DNA of 6,252 nt from a virus (taxonomy: Duplodnaviria; Heunggongvirae; Uroviricota; Caudoviricetes). Both the position numbers and the translations under genes were made by a program. The notes under the pieces are model-generated. The model was not told where the DNA came from, did not search any database, and saw only the letters and a list, made by a program, of their open reading frames with translations. Positions 1,659-6,252 of this stretch are shown here, in pieces; the first letter of the stretch is position 1, and every line of letters starts with the position of its first letter. The stretch is taken from IMG/VR virus record IMGVR_UViG_2778261645_000001; one strand, 5' to 3'.

Positions 1659-2366
1659 TTAAATCACTTTGCTGTATTTCTGAGGAACCTTCAGTAGCTG
1701 TTCAATGTCACCTTGCAGGGCAACCTTTTTCTGTGCCTCGTATTCGGCTATCAAAGATTTCATGCTATCAAGTTCTTTTTTAAGCTTTTGCTTTAACTTA
1801 TCCAGTTTACCGGAATAATGCTTAGTCAAATTAGCTTCAGCTAACTGAAGAATCTCTTCATCTGTTTTATCACTCATCAGAATAAATTGACCAGAACCCC
1901 TTAATGCTTGTCTGACATCAATTAACCGGAACCCTTCAGGGATACTTTGAAGAACTTTAGGAACGTCTTCAATCGCTGTACCAAAACCATCATTAAAGTT
2001 TCCTTCATAATAGATAAATGGGTTTGACTTAATCTCGTAAGCAATATCATATTCTGAAGGTTTCGAGGTTTCTTCGAAGTTCTTAACATTGTCGTAAGCA
2101 ATATCAAGTCGAATACGCTGTTCTTTTAACTGTGGGTAATATTCACGCTCAAGATTAAATAGTGCTTCACCCTTGCAGATATCTGGCATTTCTTGAGGCT
2201 CAGGAGACACAAAGGTAATTTGCTTCGGTGACATTCGGATTTCTTGCTCAAGTGCAATTCTTTCATCATGTTCTTTACGCTGAATAGTGATAGCTGGATG
2301 TTCAGTCTGTGGCGACCAGTCACCGAAGCTATCAACCTTTCTACCGCTAATATATAGATTTTCCAT
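1659..2366 (-). CDS. Hypothetical protein (235 aa from the preferred ATG), charged, with a Lys/Glu-rich probably helical C-terminus
   Basis: ORF track gives 1659..2411 with a GTG start. The internal ATG at 2366-2364 (MENLYISGRK...) is preceded by GAAGAGGAAAA about 5-8 nt upstream. Long uninterrupted frame. The nested 61-aa and 81-aa ORFs in other frames are treated as artefacts. Confidence 0.7.
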   Translation of the reverse strand: MENLYISGRKVDSFGDWSPQTEHPAITIQRKEHDERIALEQEIRMSPKQITFVSPEPQEMPDICKGEALFNLEREYYPQLKEQRIRLDIAYDNVKNFEETSKPSEYDIAYEIKSNPFIYYEGNFNDGFGTAIEDVPKVLQSIPEGFRLIDVRQALRGSGQFILMSDKTDEEILQLAEANLTKHYSGKLDKLKQKLKKELDSMKSLIAEYEAQKKVALQGDIEQLLKVPQKYSKVI

Positions 2367-2573
2367 TTCATTTTCCTCTTCTAAGTAATACTCAGTTTTT
2401 AAAAAGCACACCTGACATCCTACAAACTTAGAAGAGGCTTAAAAGGCGTTTGCCAAGTATGCTTTTTAAAAGCTGAAAAAGCCCTAGATAACTAAAACGC
2501 TATAAAGGGCTAAGGTGAAGAAATTAAAACATCTAAAGGATTCAATAACGAATGAACAAGAGTACTTTTCGAG

Positions 2574-2602: not shown

Positions 2603-2846
2603 GTAGCGAAAAGCATTGCACCTTTCAGAATGTTCGGTATAGAACATACCTCACCAACTCAGAATATCCATCCATCCATCTGATTATTGAAAGAAATATA
2701 AGAGAGAATTACTCTCCCATAATTAAAATTATGTCATGCTTAAGGTTATTTGTCAACAACTTTTTAACAGATTGGTAACATTTATACTTTAATAGATGCA
2801 CCTGCAATCATACCAATCAATACAAAACAGATAATCACCAATTCCA

Positions 2847-3176
2847 TTAATGCACCACCTTCGAATCCGTCACCAAAATATTGTCAGCGTACAAAATTGC
2901 TATAGCTGCCTTGAGATATCTTTCAGGGCTAATGCTGTATTTGTTCGTTTGCTCGATAACCAATCTTTTCATGTTGCTGTCTTTAATTGGTAGCATCATT
3001 CGAGGCTCGTTAAACTCCACCGAGTGAATAAAGTCAGAGATGTTTTCTGCATTATCAGCCATCAAAGCTAACAGCCTGTCAAAGTCAATGCTAATACCTG
3101 CATCAATGAAGCTTTGCACCATCATAGCAGTGTCGGTATCAATAAAAATCTGTAGTGGGAAGTTTAATTCTCTCAT
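2847..3176 (-). CDS. Hypothetical acidic protein (109 aa)
   Basis: ATG at 3176-3174 with a strong Shine-Dalgarno AAGGAG about 9 nt upstream (minus-strand context AAAAGGAGATTTTAAGAAATG). Clean ORF. No recognisable domain. Confidence 0.7.
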   Translation of the reverse strand: MRELNFPLQIFIDTDTAMMVQSFIDAGISIDFDRLLALMADNAENISDFIHSVEFNEPRMMLPIKDSNMKRLVIEQTNKYSISPERYLKAAIAILYADNILVTDSKVVH

Positions 3177-3197: not shown

Positions 3198-3318
3198 CAG
3201 ACCTCCTCAATCGCTCTGTAACGAGCTAAACAGTCTTTTTCAGGGGTAGCCTGTAGGGGTGTGCCACATACCCTAAAATAAGATAGTTTTTTGCGTTAGA
3301 ATGCGATTGAGAGCGTCT
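3198..3318. repeat. Copy 1 of a two-copy ~100-120 bp element with conserved inverted termini (repeat A)
   Basis: Shares a ~46-bp left block (cagacctcYtcaatcgctctgtaacgagYtaaac...cagg) and a ~30-bp right block (ttttttgYgtYagaatgcgattgagagcgtct) with 5125-5222; the centre differs. The outer 16 bp of the two blocks are imperfect inverted complements (13 of 16). It lies in the 169-bp spacer between the 69-aa and 109-aa genes. Confidence 0.6.
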
Positions 3319-4056: not shown

Positions 4057-4335
4057 TCAGACCTCCAGAGACAGCTTGCGAATCTTGATGCTCAATAGAC
4101 GGGCAATATCAATTTTAAAGCTGTTAAGTCCCTTCAAAGTATCTAAAGCGTCCTGAGTAATTCGGATGTGTTTACGACCTTTAGAAACTGGATATTTAAG
4201 TAAATCCGACTCAGTGACCTCTTTAGCAATTGCAAGCTGCATAACAGTCTGATGAGGCAAGCTACTAGCTCGTTTAATTCTGGTAAGCTCGTTAAAAGCT
4301 TCCTCTGAAATACGGGTTAATGTGTGTTTATTCAT
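4057..4335 (-). CDS. Putative ribbon-helix-helix (Arc/CopG-like) DNA-binding protein, 92 aa
   Basis: ATG at 4335-4333 directly abuts the stop of the upstream gene (TAAATG), with AGAGGAA about 7 nt upstream. The N-terminus HTLTRISEEAFNELTRIKRASSLPHQTVMQLAIAK fits a beta-strand, helix, helix RHH pattern. Assignment is by pattern only. Confidence 0.4.
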   Translation of the reverse strand: MNKHTLTRISEEAFNELTRIKRASSLPHQTVMQLAIAKEVTESDLLKYPVSKGRKHIRITQDALDTLKGLNSFKIDIARLLSIKIRKLSLEV

Positions 4336-4893: not shown

Positions 4894-4942
4894 TCATAAG
4901 CCAGTCCTTATAATTGTTAATTCTCTGTTAACCATATATACA

Positions 4943-4971
4943 ATACTAGCAGTTTCAAAGACTAATGTCAA
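4943..4971 (-). promoter_or_regulatory. Near-consensus sigma70 promoter for the leftward small-gene operon
   Basis: On the minus strand: -35 TTGACA (revcomp of 4966-4971), a 17-bp spacer, -10 TAGTAT (revcomp of 4943-4948). Correctly placed upstream of the 185-aa gene start at 4893. Confidence 0.6.
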
Positions 4972-4978
4972 GCATTTT

Positions 4979-5008
4979 TTAACATTTCATTAACATCTGT
5001 GGTATAAT
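4979..5008 (+). promoter_or_regulatory. Rightward promoter with extended -10, divergent from the operon promoter
   Basis: -35 TTAACA (4979-4984), an 18-bp spacer, extended -10 TGgTATAAT (5000-5008). Back to back with the leftward promoter; the two -35 elements are 7 bp apart. Confidence 0.5.
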
Positions 5009-5124
5009 GGTTCTATGGGGAGAGTAAAATATAAAGGCGTGGCTATGAGGTTTATTCGATAGGGGTTGGTACAAGCCCAACTAACCGAATCAACTATGTA
5101 TGTCACATGGTATTGCATTGCACA

Positions 5125-5222
5125 CAGACCTCTTCAATCGCTCTGTAACGAGTTAAACGGCCTCTTCAGGTCAACTCATAAGGTCAGGTACTTTTTTGTG
5201 TCAGAATGCGATTGAGAGCGTC
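5125..5222. repeat. Copy 2 of repeat A
   Basis: Same conserved left and right blocks as 3198-3318, with a shorter, divergent centre. Lies about 115 bp downstream of the rightward promoter; its right block ends about 5 nt before the AGGA ribosome-binding site of the 5238 ORF. Confidence 0.6.
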
Positions 5223-5237
5223 TTACAAGGAAAACTA

Positions 5238-5414
5238 ATGGTAAATCTCCCTCCTGAACTGGGGTCACCTGATGTATGGGCTGGTGGAGGTATTGGCCTT
5301 ATTTCAGGTCTGCTGCTTCGTTACGTCCTTGTCAGAGTGCTTGTTGTCTTTAAACTGTTCGGTCGTACATGGACGCTTGACCTTAAGGATAATGACCACA
5401 CAGACCCCCGCTAA
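5238..5414 (+). CDS. Candidate small hydrophobic (single-transmembrane) peptide, 58 aa
   Basis: ATG at 5238 preceded by AGGA with a 7-nt spacer. Product MVNLPPELGSPDVWAGGGIGLISGLLLRYVLVRVLVVFKLFGRTWTLDLKDNDHTDPR has one hydrophobic segment of about 23 residues. ORF track reports it as 5196..5414 from a TTG start. Local GC is higher than the surrounding cargo. A weak CCCC/GGGG hairpin (5429-5452) follows the stop. Confidence 0.3.
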   Translation: MVNLPPELGSPDVWAGGGIGLISGLLLRYVLVRVLVVFKLFGRTWTLDLKDNDHTDPR

Positions 5415-5489
5415 ACCCCCTCCAAAACCCCCTGTACGAGATGGTATAGGGGCATCTTTAGCATTTTGTGCTATCTATTAAAAAATAGC

Positions 5490-5519
5490 TTGACAGAACC
5501 GGAAAGCTGTATCTATCAA
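5490..5519 (+). promoter_or_regulatory. Possible promoter reading into the tandem-repeat region
   Basis: TTGACA (5490-5495), an 18-bp spacer, TATCAA (5514-5519). The -35 is consensus but the -10 is weak, and there is no obvious downstream gene. Confidence 0.25.
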
Positions 5520-5534
5520 GCACTCACCTCTCTG

Positions 5535-5724
5535 ACAGTAATTTCTAAAAGTTCTTATTTTTCAATAAGTTGTAATTAGCCATATATAGAGAACTGACAA
5601 GTCTCTTCACAGAGAACTCTGTAACCTTAACAGTAATTTCTAAAAATGCTTATTTTTCAATAAGTTGTAATCACCCAATATAATAGCTGTTCAGCTTCTT
5701 CACAGGGAAACTTCAGAGGCCTTC
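5535..5724. repeat. Two tandem ~95-bp direct repeats (repeat B), each with a CTTATT-N4-AATAAG hairpin
   Basis: Units start at 5535 and 5630. The first 42 bp are 40/42 identical (acagtaatttctaaaaNtNcttatttttcaataagttgtaat); the remainder is recognisably related but diverged. Embedded inverted repeats at 5554-5569 and 5649-5664. Unit 2 contains a perfect TATAAT at 5679-5684. Confidence 0.65.
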
Positions 5725-5985
5725 TTAACCGCCCCACTAATCGGGAGAAGAGCGATAACCACAGAGAGGGAAGCTCCTTTCTTAACCGACTTCTTAAACA
5801 ATCTTTACAGACCCCGTTCACCAGTCTCAATATTTTATTTCTCGCTCTTCGTTTGTTGCTCGTTTCTATTATTGAGGGGGTTTGAAAAACCTCTGTAAAA
5901 TAACCCTTCCAGTAAAAAGCGAATAACCCCAGAAAGGGGAATCGCCTCTTTAACATTCTCGTAATCAGCACTCTATATGAGAATC

Positions 5986-6192
5986 TTAGCTCAACCTTTG
6001 AACAATCTTGTAAGTGGTGCTTAGAGGCATTCTTAGCGATTCTGCGATGCTCTTGATGGGTTGCCCTTGGTCATACATTTTAATCAACCTGTCAAGCGTC
6101 TGTGCATCGTGTATATGAGGTCTTCCACGTAAACCACCCCTATTAACCACGGCAAGTAAAAGCATTGTGTCACCACAATAGATTGTCTGGGT
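5986..6192 (-). pseudogene. 3' fragment (68 codons plus stop) of a small serine recombinase (resolvase/invertase family), truncated at the IS boundary
   Basis: The minus-strand frame open from 6192 to the stop at 5988-5986 translates to TQTIYCGDTMLLLAVVNRGGLRGRPHIHDAQTLDRLIKMYDQGQPIKSIAESLRMPLSTTYKIVQRLS. The GRP followed by ...G-x-x-I-x-x-I-A-x-x-L-x-x-x-x-S/T-T-x-Y-K pattern matches the C-terminal HTH of resolvases such as gamma-delta, Hin and Gin. The catalytic N-terminal part would have lain where the IS now sits. Not in the ORF track because it has no in-window start. Confidence 0.55.
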
Positions 6193-6252
6193 TGAACCGC
6201 CCCGGAAATCCTGGAGACTAAACTCCCTGAGAAAGAGGTAAACAGGATGACT
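6193..6252 (+). mobile_element. Left terminus (IRL) of a second IS629-like element, including the orfA ribosome-binding site and start codon (ATG 6247-6249)
   Basis: TGAACCGCCCCGGAAATCCTGGAGACTAAACTCCCTGAGAAAGAGGTAAACAGGATGACT matches my recollection of the IS629 left end and orfA start (MT...), with one or two differences. It is the inverted complement of 36-60. Same orientation as the copy at the window start. Confidence 0.75.

Follow-up and report, generated by a model that had tools for sequence, protein, structure and literature searches.

A conserved small gene for a predicted membrane protein in the control region of a phage-related enterobacterial island

An open reading frame of 58 codons and a stop, located at positions 5238..5414 on the + strand of the viral DNA analysed here (6,252 nucleotides, IMG/VR record IMGVR_UViG_2778261645_000001; hereafter the window), is almost certainly a genuine protein-coding gene under purifying selection, as judged from the comparison of its relatives. 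Its product, a single-pass membrane peptide by prediction, is best filed as a sequence-novel small membrane protein of phage-related mobile elements, present in databases only under the name 'hypothetical protein'. It could quite possibly, though by no means probably, be an oligomerising, membrane-perturbing kill or lysis-timing effector whose synthesis is limited at the RNA level near the start codon. Annotation systematically overlooks small membrane proteins, and this one belongs to the core of an island present in several hundred complete Escherichia coli genomes.

The ATG of the ORF occupies positions 5238-5240 and its TAA positions 5412-5414, and the 58-codon product reads MVNLPPELGSPDVWAGGGIGLISGLLLRYVLVRVLVVFKLFGRTWTLDLKDNDHTDPR. 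By length alone such an ORF is not above chance, as the window contains 48 ORFs of at least 30 aa; its significance therefore comes from comparison with relatives. The frame is intact in all of the 14 loci compared, from E. coli, E. albertii and Citrobacter; tblastn located it in the first 13 of these, and L014 has it intact as well. It is still open in a Citrobacter relative sharing only 56% amino-acid identity, the lowest value seen by tblastn, and the sole length differences among loci are two indels, of 12 nt and 6 nt, both in frame. Estimates by the Nei-Gojobori method give a dN/dS of 0.08-0.23 in the ORF frame over ten pairs, with dS reaching 1.1-1.5, against 0.5-2.8 and 2.2-8 in the two other forward frames and 0.4-0.6, 0.4-0.6 and >3 in the three reverse frames. 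The synonymous excess is significant in every divergent pair (Fisher p = 2e-5 to 9e-8). A sequence-only reading of the window had proposed this 58-aa ORF, had noted that its GC content is raised and had suggested checking it by tblastn and by synonymous versus non-synonymous substitutions: the comparison of the 14 loci confirms both the placement and the choice of start, and the GC content is indeed 0.46-0.48 across the ORF versus 0.33-0.45 nearby, a difference that is real but modest.

The same frame also appears in the program-made ORF listing as 5196..5414, from an upstream TTG, which would yield a form of 72 aa. We rejected this longer form and take ATG 5238 as the true start, because the TTG lies inside an optional leader element (repeat A, see below) and because minimal leaders have an in-frame TGA abutting the ATG. 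A Shine-Dalgarno sequence, AAGGA, is read directly at 5227..5231 (+), 6 nt 5' of the ATG, which bears out the well-spaced ribosome-binding site described earlier; leaders devoid of repeat A use an AAGG located 9 nt upstream of the ATG instead. That the ORF arose by chance in a region acting as a non-coding signal at the RNA or DNA level, or that the true gene is the alternative frame 5272..5481, is hardly credible. It is true that ORFs of similar size are common in the window, that PGAP leaves many genomes unannotated here and that codons 1-18 are unusually conserved as nucleotides. However, the dN/dS pattern is restricted to the frame of 5238..5414, every indel respects this frame, and the Citrobacter relative keeps it open in spite of its divergence. 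As for ORF 5272..5481, which the sequence-only reading had retained as a competitor, it is refuted by stop codons in seven relatives (L001, L004, L005, L006, L008, L009 and L012), and its dN/dS is ~0.5-2.8.

Members of the family are 58-64 residues long and share the consensus MVNLPPELGSPDVWAGGGIGLIAGLLLRYxIVRVxVVFxLFGRxWxLDLKDxxHTxPR. The top 19-residue Kyte-Doolittle window scores 2.15 (residues 19-37), and AlphaFold2 models one continuous helix over residues 11-51, with a mean pLDDT of 72 and a core above 87; the single long hydrophobic helix that had been read from the sequence is thus recovered by both methods. The peptide carries neither a signal peptide nor a lipobox. Its N-tail contains no Lys or Arg and has a net charge of -1 to -2, while the C-tail contains 3-5 Lys/Arg, a charge distribution that, by the positive-inside rule, predicts an N-out/C-in single-pass protein of the inner membrane. 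A glycine zipper of the form small-xxx-G-xxx-G (G16/G20/G24) is conserved, with Ser at the first zipper position in Citrobacter. Residues G17, G18, G20, R28 and R33 do not vary at all, and G16 and G24 hardly do; R28 and R33 both lie within the hydrophobic stretch, and in the predicted cytoplasmic tail F41, G42, R43, W45, D48, L49, K50 and D51 are invariant in the family alignment (A3). Glycine zippers occur in channel-forming helices and in TMD2 of pinholins, and a glycine zipper together with intramembrane arginines is more typical of self-associating, membrane-active helices. With 58 aa and a hydrophobic transmembrane helix, the peptide is of the size and type of type I toxins (<~60 aa), and it possesses the charged C-terminus and, by prediction, the at least one transmembrane domain that characterize holins and pinholins.

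The family is narrow. A search of 5.8 billion proteins returned 48 protein clusters matching the peptide: clusters of 527, 264, 144 and 127 members hold the intact sequence, and a few small ones are frameshifted. Named entries read 'hypothetical protein' or an equivalent throughout, and PGAP calls the gene in only some genomes, always with this same label. An exhaustive HMM scan of 1.84 billion representative proteins produced only 16 matches, all within the narrow family itself, and no distant relative informative on function. Nothing usable was obtained when the peptide or its alignment was compared with Pfam (E up to 0.1), NCBIfam (E up to 0.01), PADLOC (E up to 0.01), PHROGs and, by profile search, the PDB. 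There was, in particular, no profile match to Hok/Gef, Ldr, TisB, Ibs, Fst or other curated toxin families in Pfam, NCBIfam and PADLOC, nor to the holin families of Pfam and PHROG, and tblastn of the peptide against 50,697 phage and 72,556 plasmid records gave no match.

The genomic context is that of a mobile island. The window starts and finishes with 60 bases of IS629, one end of the element on each side, and between them lies part of a chromosomal island that has lost to IS629 its integrase, its Dit gene, half of its tape-measure gene and the N-terminus of its small recombinase. Intact related islands measure 11-12 kb and are found between tonB and yciI (L001, L002) or inside a DUF72 gene between yecD and yecN (L006-L008). 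Their genes are arranged as follows: a large serine recombinase, an opposite-strand operon, a divergent promoter region, the small rightward ORF, cargo and a small serine recombinase; a variant, L014, has a tyrosine integrase in place of the large serine recombinase. The opposite-strand operon encodes a Dit-like 'baseplate' protein, a tape-measure protein, proteins of ~70, 235 and 109 aa, small proteins that often include an HNH endonuclease, and proteins of 92 and 185 aa. The 0.6-2 kb that follow the small ORF are largely non-coding or contain cargo (Dam methylase, hypothetical genes). In every variant seen, whatever the integrase or cargo, the small ORF adjoins the 185-aa gene, which makes it part of the island core.

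DNA resembling the window interior is present in 526 of the 5,426 complete E. coli genomes and the ORF region in 412-414 of them, always on the chromosome; the frequency of the island is roughly 8-10%, and the best identity of any of these genomes to the window is about 91%. The island also occurs in Shigella, Salmonella, E. albertii, E. fergusonii and Citrobacter. We considered an inversion of the small serine-recombinase segment, whose orientation is opposite in L001 and L002, and rejected it: there are no reverse-complement matches, so that these are different alleles or modules. Homologues of the 185-aa protein reached no distant islands, the matches listed being all at least 87% identical, and the AlphaFold2 model of this protein (pLDDT 41) is unusable.

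Part of the opposite-strand operon has recognizable phage relatives. The Dit-like protein of the island is 70% identical to the product of the gene that immediately follows tape-measure in the Felix-O1-like virulent myoviruses (Ounavirinae: Suspvirus, Felixounavirus), the island tape-measure protein is 32% identical to its Ounavirinae counterpart, and the succession of a small protein, tape-measure and Dit matches the chaperone, tape-measure and Dit of phage mistaenkt. The other island proteins tested had no informative match. Endolysin or spanin genes were found neither in annotated full-length islands nor among the window ORFs. We infer from these similarities that the island may live as a satellite of Felix-O1-like phages or serve in defence against them. 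In the library of papers searched, neither the island, nor the peptide sequence, nor Felixounavirus combined with satellites led to anything relevant beyond LidI, a satellite protein discussed below, and this ~11-kb mobile island is apparently undescribed.

A rightward promoter, P_R (4979..5008, +), which a promoter scan matched at 11 of 12 positions (TTAACA-18-TGgTATAAT, with an extended -10), has the ORF as its first and apparently sole gene. From the distance to the -10 element, transcription is predicted to start near A5015. P_R stands back to back with a leftward promoter, P_L (4943..4971, -; TTGACA-17-TAGTAT, 10 of 12 positions), which serves the operon beginning with the 185-aa gene, and the same arrangement is repeated in L006. 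A pair of direct TAACA repeats with an 11-bp spacing overlaps the -35 element and spacer of P_R; GGTATAATGG and both repeats are kept in 13 of the 14 loci, and the repeats look like operators. The predicted direction of transcription of the gene is away from the structural operon. A consensus scan of the window and L006, of a type that weak promoters could escape, detected no antisense promoter close to the ORF.

Assuming a start at A5015, the predicted 5' untranslated leader is ~223 nt long (5015..5237, +; fold z = -2.2) and folds into two hairpin domains, the second of which is repeat A. The sequence-only reading was right in describing a structured leader of ~220 nt containing repeat A, with the qualification that repeat A and the inner hairpin are optional and the ORF independent of them. 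This modular organization emerges from an alignment of the 260 nt that precede the ATG in the 14 loci, whose conserved core comprises the promoter with its TAACA repeats, a 5' purine tract, a short stem, TGCATTGCACACAG and the Shine-Dalgarno. In the conserved stem, GTGGCTAT pairs with GTCAC (GGTCAC in the core alignment), and the loop that it closes accommodates an optional hairpin, H1 (5047..5097, +), whose presence or absence among loci is precise: some loci differ by the whole hairpin, others by its inner part only. The leader of L006 contains a hairpin and U-run flagged as terminator-like, an observation suggestive of an attenuator; the U-run ranges from 0 to 6 U between loci. An Rfam scan of the whole window, with E up to 1, returned no match, and the leader and repeat A thus correspond to no described RNA family. 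On the other side of the ORF, a conserved 3'-flank hairpin, CCCCUGUAC-GAGAUG-GUAUAGGGG (5429..5452, +; fold z = -3.0), must be non-coding, since the reading frame differs among loci where the nucleotides are conserved; it was not called by a terminator scan.

The copy of repeat A found in the leader (copy 2; 5125..5223, +) is a 99-nt imperfect palindrome with a fold z of -4.0 versus shuffles, and the inserted block that carries it spans ~5129-5227. It is cleanly missing from the leader in 6 of the 14 loci (L004-L008 and L012), where the ORF is kept and the leader measures 75-121 nt. Being absent from many relatives that keep the ORF, repeat A is not an essential part of the small gene. Copy 1 (3198..3318, +; fold z = -5.3 and -5.9) has the same orientation as copy 2, and its reverse complement, carried by the leftward mRNA, stops shortly before the site where ribosomes would bind for the 109-aa ORF. 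Seven loci have both copies, two have copy 1 alone and four (L004, L006, L008 and L014) have neither; among the complete loci, copy 2 never occurs without copy 1 (7 of 7). Both copies form rod-like hairpins with conserved ends and divergent interiors, and a copy at 69.5% identity is found elsewhere in one island, L015. Repeat A was also considered as a genome-wide repeat of the MITE or ERIC kind, and this was rejected, as the 421 genomes with repeat A are about as many as those with the ORF region. Because the copies are direct repeats amid divergent genes, the rightward leader is complementary to the leftward mRNA at repeat A. The complementarity consists of two ~33-nt arms with ~94% identity, and the duplex between leader and leftward mRNA has a predicted energy of -147 kcal/mol versus -70 +/- 7 for shuffles. 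Two possibilities are that repeat A mediates an optional antisense cross-talk or that it acts as an orientation-independent processing hairpin, for example an RNase III site.

Signals of another kind surround the start codon. Synonymous variation falls sharply over codons 1-18, which show 6 extra synonymous codon types against 32 for codons 19-41 and 17 for the rest of the ORF; amino-acid variation is alike across the three blocks. The low-synonymous block contains a CU tract, CTCCCTCC (5247-5254), and a second element, GGTGGAGG (5283-5290), which together span 5247..5290 (+) and for which alternative pairings are predicted. In most variants the 5' purine tract of the leader (GGGGAGAG or GAGAGGGRA; 5017-5024) can pair with the CU tract at codons 4-6; alternatively, this tract pairs with GGTGGAGG at codons 16-18. 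These CU/purine pairings are of low complexity and show no clean covariation, and when 8 loci were searched for an RNA that would pair consistently with the start region, only low-complexity G-rich/C-rich pairings came out, none of them convincing.

The main ATG is also preceded by a short upstream ORF (uORF) of 10 codons (MRLRASYKEN; 5206..5238, +), whose TAA overlaps the start codon as TAATG. A uORF initiated by ATG and ending at the main ATG (UGAAUG or UAAUG) is present in 13 of the 14 loci and in 4 of the 5 leader architectures. It has 10 codons in leaders with repeat A and 19 in minimal leaders, where the purine tract is predicted to act as its Shine-Dalgarno. As shuffles yield a comparable uORF in ~22% of cases (~0.22 per architecture) and the architectures are not fully independent, this pattern is suggestive only as a sign of translational coupling. 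In the predicted folds of 13 leaders, the mean unpaired probability is 0.23-0.85 for the Shine-Dalgarno and mostly 0.6-0.9 for the AUG, and the repeat A hairpin stops 15 nt before the ATG, leaving the Shine-Dalgarno free. Depressed synonymous variation and the uORF are nevertheless hints that point to control at the RNA level.

In the reading we prefer, the peptide would self-associate through its glycine zipper, perturb the inner membrane and serve either to kill the cell or to time its lysis, in the manner of a type I toxin, a pinholin or the satellite protein LidI. The peptide would be made upon derepression of the island control region, for which infection by a Felix-O1-like phage is the most plausible occasion. 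Peptide synthesis would probably be limited at the RNA level, in view of the low synonymous change in codons 1-18, the purine/CU pairing at codons 4-6 and the uORF at the ATG, which would permit translational coupling. The repeat-A hairpin would be an optional add-on, either as a processing site of the RNase III type or as a trans-antisense partner of its sister copy. The conservation of the TAACA repeats over P_R fits a regulated promoter, and LidI in PLE satellites provides a precedent (PMC7182436). On the other hand, a near-consensus P_R equally fits a harmless protein made constitutively, and purifying selection and core status would suit a non-lethal membrane role just as well. The effector reading is further weakened by the lack of any antisense promoter near the ORF in our scan, by a Shine-Dalgarno and AUG that are mostly unpaired in the predicted folds, by the absence of lysis genes nearby and of matches to holin or toxin families, and by the chance level of the uORF, ~0.2 per architecture for architectures that are not fully independent. 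The type I toxin, holin-like or host-kill peptide imagined in the sequence-only reading survives as a small single-helix membrane peptide, but no antisense promoter, lysis gene or family match came to support these particular classes; a toxin, holin or host-kill activity would be a plausible reading.

Three other functions have to be weighed against that of an effector. The strong promoter, with a lone gene behind it in a control region of the immunity type, would also suit superinfection exclusion or immunity, that is, a non-lethal inner-membrane protein blocking DNA entry or another membrane step of phages, including the helper or related islands. By its position and its predicted membrane helix, the peptide is a membrane protein of a resident element encoded beside the control region, as expected of such a factor; its N-tail, predicted to be periplasmic, is short and conserved, the gene is under purifying selection and almost never disrupted, and the tape-measure and Dit genes of the island are phage parts of genome delivery. 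We nonetheless find exclusion doubtful: known exclusion proteins are usually larger and accessory whereas the present gene belongs to the island core, no PHROG or PADLOC family shows similarity to it, the operator-like repeats over P_R suggest that expression is not simply constitutive, and the RNA-level constraint on the start region is left unexplained. The peptide could otherwise have a role in the island life cycle that is neither toxic nor excluding, as an anchor or sensor for infection-linked derepression or as an assembly or transfer factor. Its core status, the conserved cytoplasmic tail (F41 to D51, as listed above) and the lack of ties to any known toxin or exclusion family are compatible with such a role, which we judge unlikely: this is a residual category with no nameable partner or domain, and the zipper with its intramembrane arginines would be less typical of it than of self-associating, membrane-active helices.

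A canonical type I toxin-antitoxin system, where the repeat-A leader would be the antisense target and the leftward mRNA, with the reverse complement of copy 1, the antitoxin, is highly unlikely. The peptide is small and hydrophobic, the window has a 223-nt leader, the complementary arms form a duplex far stronger than shuffles do, and copy 2 was always accompanied by copy 1 in complete loci. Against this, the ORF is kept in the six loci (L004-L008 and L012) whose leader has no repeat A, and also in L004, L006, L008 and L014, which have no copy at all; the consensus scan found no dedicated antisense promoter; the hairpin ends 15 nt short of the ATG with the Shine-Dalgarno free; and the Hok, Ldr, TisB, Ibs and Fst families are unmatched. 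A more ambitious version of the effector reading would present the peptide as a LidI-like lysis-timing or abortive-kill effector of new enterobacterial islands that parasitise or counter Felix-O1-like myoviruses through their own tape-measure/Dit module, its expression being gated by a modular leader with a coupled uORF, an optional repeat A and a possible cross-talk with the leftward operon. Taken as a whole, this combination is decidedly unlikely.

The interest of the gene depends on which function holds. Felix-O1-like phages serve in phage typing and therapy, and a product that acts in killing or lysis, or else in exclusion, would offer an experimental handle on the interplay between the island and these phages; in either role the peptide would be a sequence-novel addition to the membrane mini-proteins of satellites and prophages with a known role. 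Interest would rise further if the island were a Felix-O1-specific satellite and the peptide its effector. If the peptide is an ordinary membrane anchor, the gain is a corrected annotation only.

Comparison with known systems places the peptide near several classes of small membrane proteins. With N-out/C-in mini-proteins of the Pf3-coat type, which are YidC substrates, it shares a short acidic N-tail, the lack of a signal peptide, one helix and a basic C-tail, a likeness that covers insertion and topology only and says nothing on function. Exclusion proteins such as HK97 gp15, T4 Imm and lactococcal Sie2009 are likewise small membrane proteins encoded beside an immunity or control region and transcribed alone; they differ in being usually larger and accessory rather than core, and have no sequence similarity to the peptide. 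Holins and pinholins (S21 68) resemble it by a transmembrane helix of the glycine-zipper type, a charged cytoplasmic C-terminus and their origin in phage-related elements. However, the peptide has one transmembrane helix where pinholins have two, and lacks a dual-start motif; its gene sits in a control region, not in a late lysis cassette, with no adjacent endolysin or spanin and no Pfam or PHROG match.

Type I toxins (Hok/Gef, TisB, Ldr, ZorO, DinQ) are similar in size (<60 aa), in their single hydrophobic helix and polar C-terminus and in their narrow taxonomy. The signs of RNA-level control at the start of the present gene extend this likeness, and the uORF at its ATG recalls the mok-hok coupling. 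The gene departs from them in several ways: our scan detected neither an antitoxin RNA nor an antisense promoter, relatives can do without the long structured leader, predicted folds do not consistently sequester the ribosome-binding site, no family model matches and the promoter is strong, with operator-like repeats. LidI, encoded by the PLE satellites of Vibrio cholerae, is an initially unannotated transmembrane protein of 66 aa in PLE 1 and 2, without detectable homologues, which is expressed upon infection and acts at the membrane to speed up lysis (PMC7182436). No sequence relationship is expected between the two proteins; LidI has been shown to be induced by infection, and the satellite nature of the present island is itself inferred. 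Both are nonetheless small, initially unannotated transmembrane proteins, encoded by core genes of integrative islands that are linked to a virulent myovirus.

The window is one part of an integrative island of about 11-12 kb, carried by 526 of 5,426 complete Escherichia coli genomes. Its loci (including L001, L002, L006-L008 and L014) represent no fewer than three insertion sites or integrase types, and no literature on the element was found. Both ends of the window lie in IS629: the right end of the insertion sequence occupies positions 1-60 and the left end positions 6193-6252, and a 25-nt inverted repeat (36-60 and 6193-6217) belongs to these termini. The IS629 copies cut two minus-strand genes: the tape-measure gene (21-1259) and that of a small serine recombinase (5986-6165), of which the C-terminal HTH_7 part is the sole remnant.

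In 13 of 14 loci, the leader of the small membrane protein gene (the main ORF, 58 codons, 5238-5414) contains a short upstream ORF that ends at the main start codon, as UAAUG or UGAAUG; the copy in the window spans 5206-5238. In the minimal leaders, which lack the repeat A module (L005-L008 and L012), this upstream ORF has 19 codons and covers nearly the entire leader, with the 5' purine tract serving as its Shine-Dalgarno sequence. At the other end of the gene, a C-rich unit of 11 nt, ACCCCCGCCAA, is repeated 2.5 times across the ORF end and the 3' flank (5404-5431), and both 3' flank classes have the motif CCUCCA after the stop codon. The main ORF mRNA carries several Shine-Dalgarno-like and anti-Shine-Dalgarno-like motifs, counting the upstream tracts and the C-rich 3' motifs.

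Short repeats also mark the control region. At the rightward promoter P_R, TAACA direct repeats (4979-4996) spaced 11 bp apart cover the -35 element and spacer, GTTAAT and GTTAAC (4914-4931) lie directly downstream of the start of the divergent leftward promoter P_L, and TTAAC-containing motifs recur through the non-coding right arm (5500-5960). A candidate regulator acting on such TAACA/TTAAC-type repeats is a 92-aa protein (4057-4335, minus strand) whose sequence reads like a tandem ribbon-helix-helix protein, the one hit behind this reading being a weak Pfam match to VapB_antitox (E = 0.08).

The palindromic repeat A (3198-3318 and 5125-5223) is present in island-bearing genomes only. Its ends, of about 33 nt, are conserved while the interior is variable, and its insertion or absence at one site is independent of the other; strain JB2 has a copy at a third site (L015, 7001-7128), with 69.5% identity. 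Repeat A could act as a processing hairpin of the RNase III type or as an antisense pair that connects the two divergent transcripts; it could also be a small mobile insertion.

A hydrophobic mini-ORF of 21 codons, MELVIICFVLIGMIAGASIKV (2782-2847, minus strand), probably encodes a genuine membrane mini-protein, the second one in the island. Its ATG overlaps the stop codon of a 109-aa ORF (2847-3176) as TAATG. Other loci have a counterpart at this position, with two widely differing alleles, of which the second reads MGLIIAWTALGLFVGCWVGNTVNKN. Further left lies the gene for a protein of 235-250 aa (1659-2411, minus strand), which PGAP annotates as "transposase" in some genomes. At the cut-offs used, it matched nothing in Pfam, PHROG or NCBIfam apart from a weak, sub-threshold hit to Pfam Mod_r (E = 0.025); the only other hit, also weak, was to PDC-M63B, a PADLOC candidate (E = 2e-4), and no phage homologue was found.

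In the right arm, at 5498-5700, a conserved promoter-like TTGACA-18-TATCAA (5498-5527) precedes a pair of 95-bp tandem repeats (5535-5582, 5630-5677), a single copy of the unit being seen in L006. Each repeat contains a 26-bp imperfect palindrome, TTCTAAAAGTTCTTATTTTTCAATAA, which resembles hix/gix-type sites. These elements may serve as res or recombination sites or be bound by the small serine recombinase; they may also belong to an origin. The recombinase itself is oriented oppositely in different strains (L001 13889-14458 versus L002 7954-8502). No reverse-complement similarity was found between these two regions, which indicates that a module was replaced and not simply inverted.

The tail module of the island, comprising a small protein, the tape-measure protein and a Dit-like protein, is of the Felix-O1/Ounavirinae type, with identical gene order and with 70% identity for the Dit-like protein and 32% for the tape-measure protein. 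The island may be a satellite of Felix-O1-like virulent phages, or a defence island against them.
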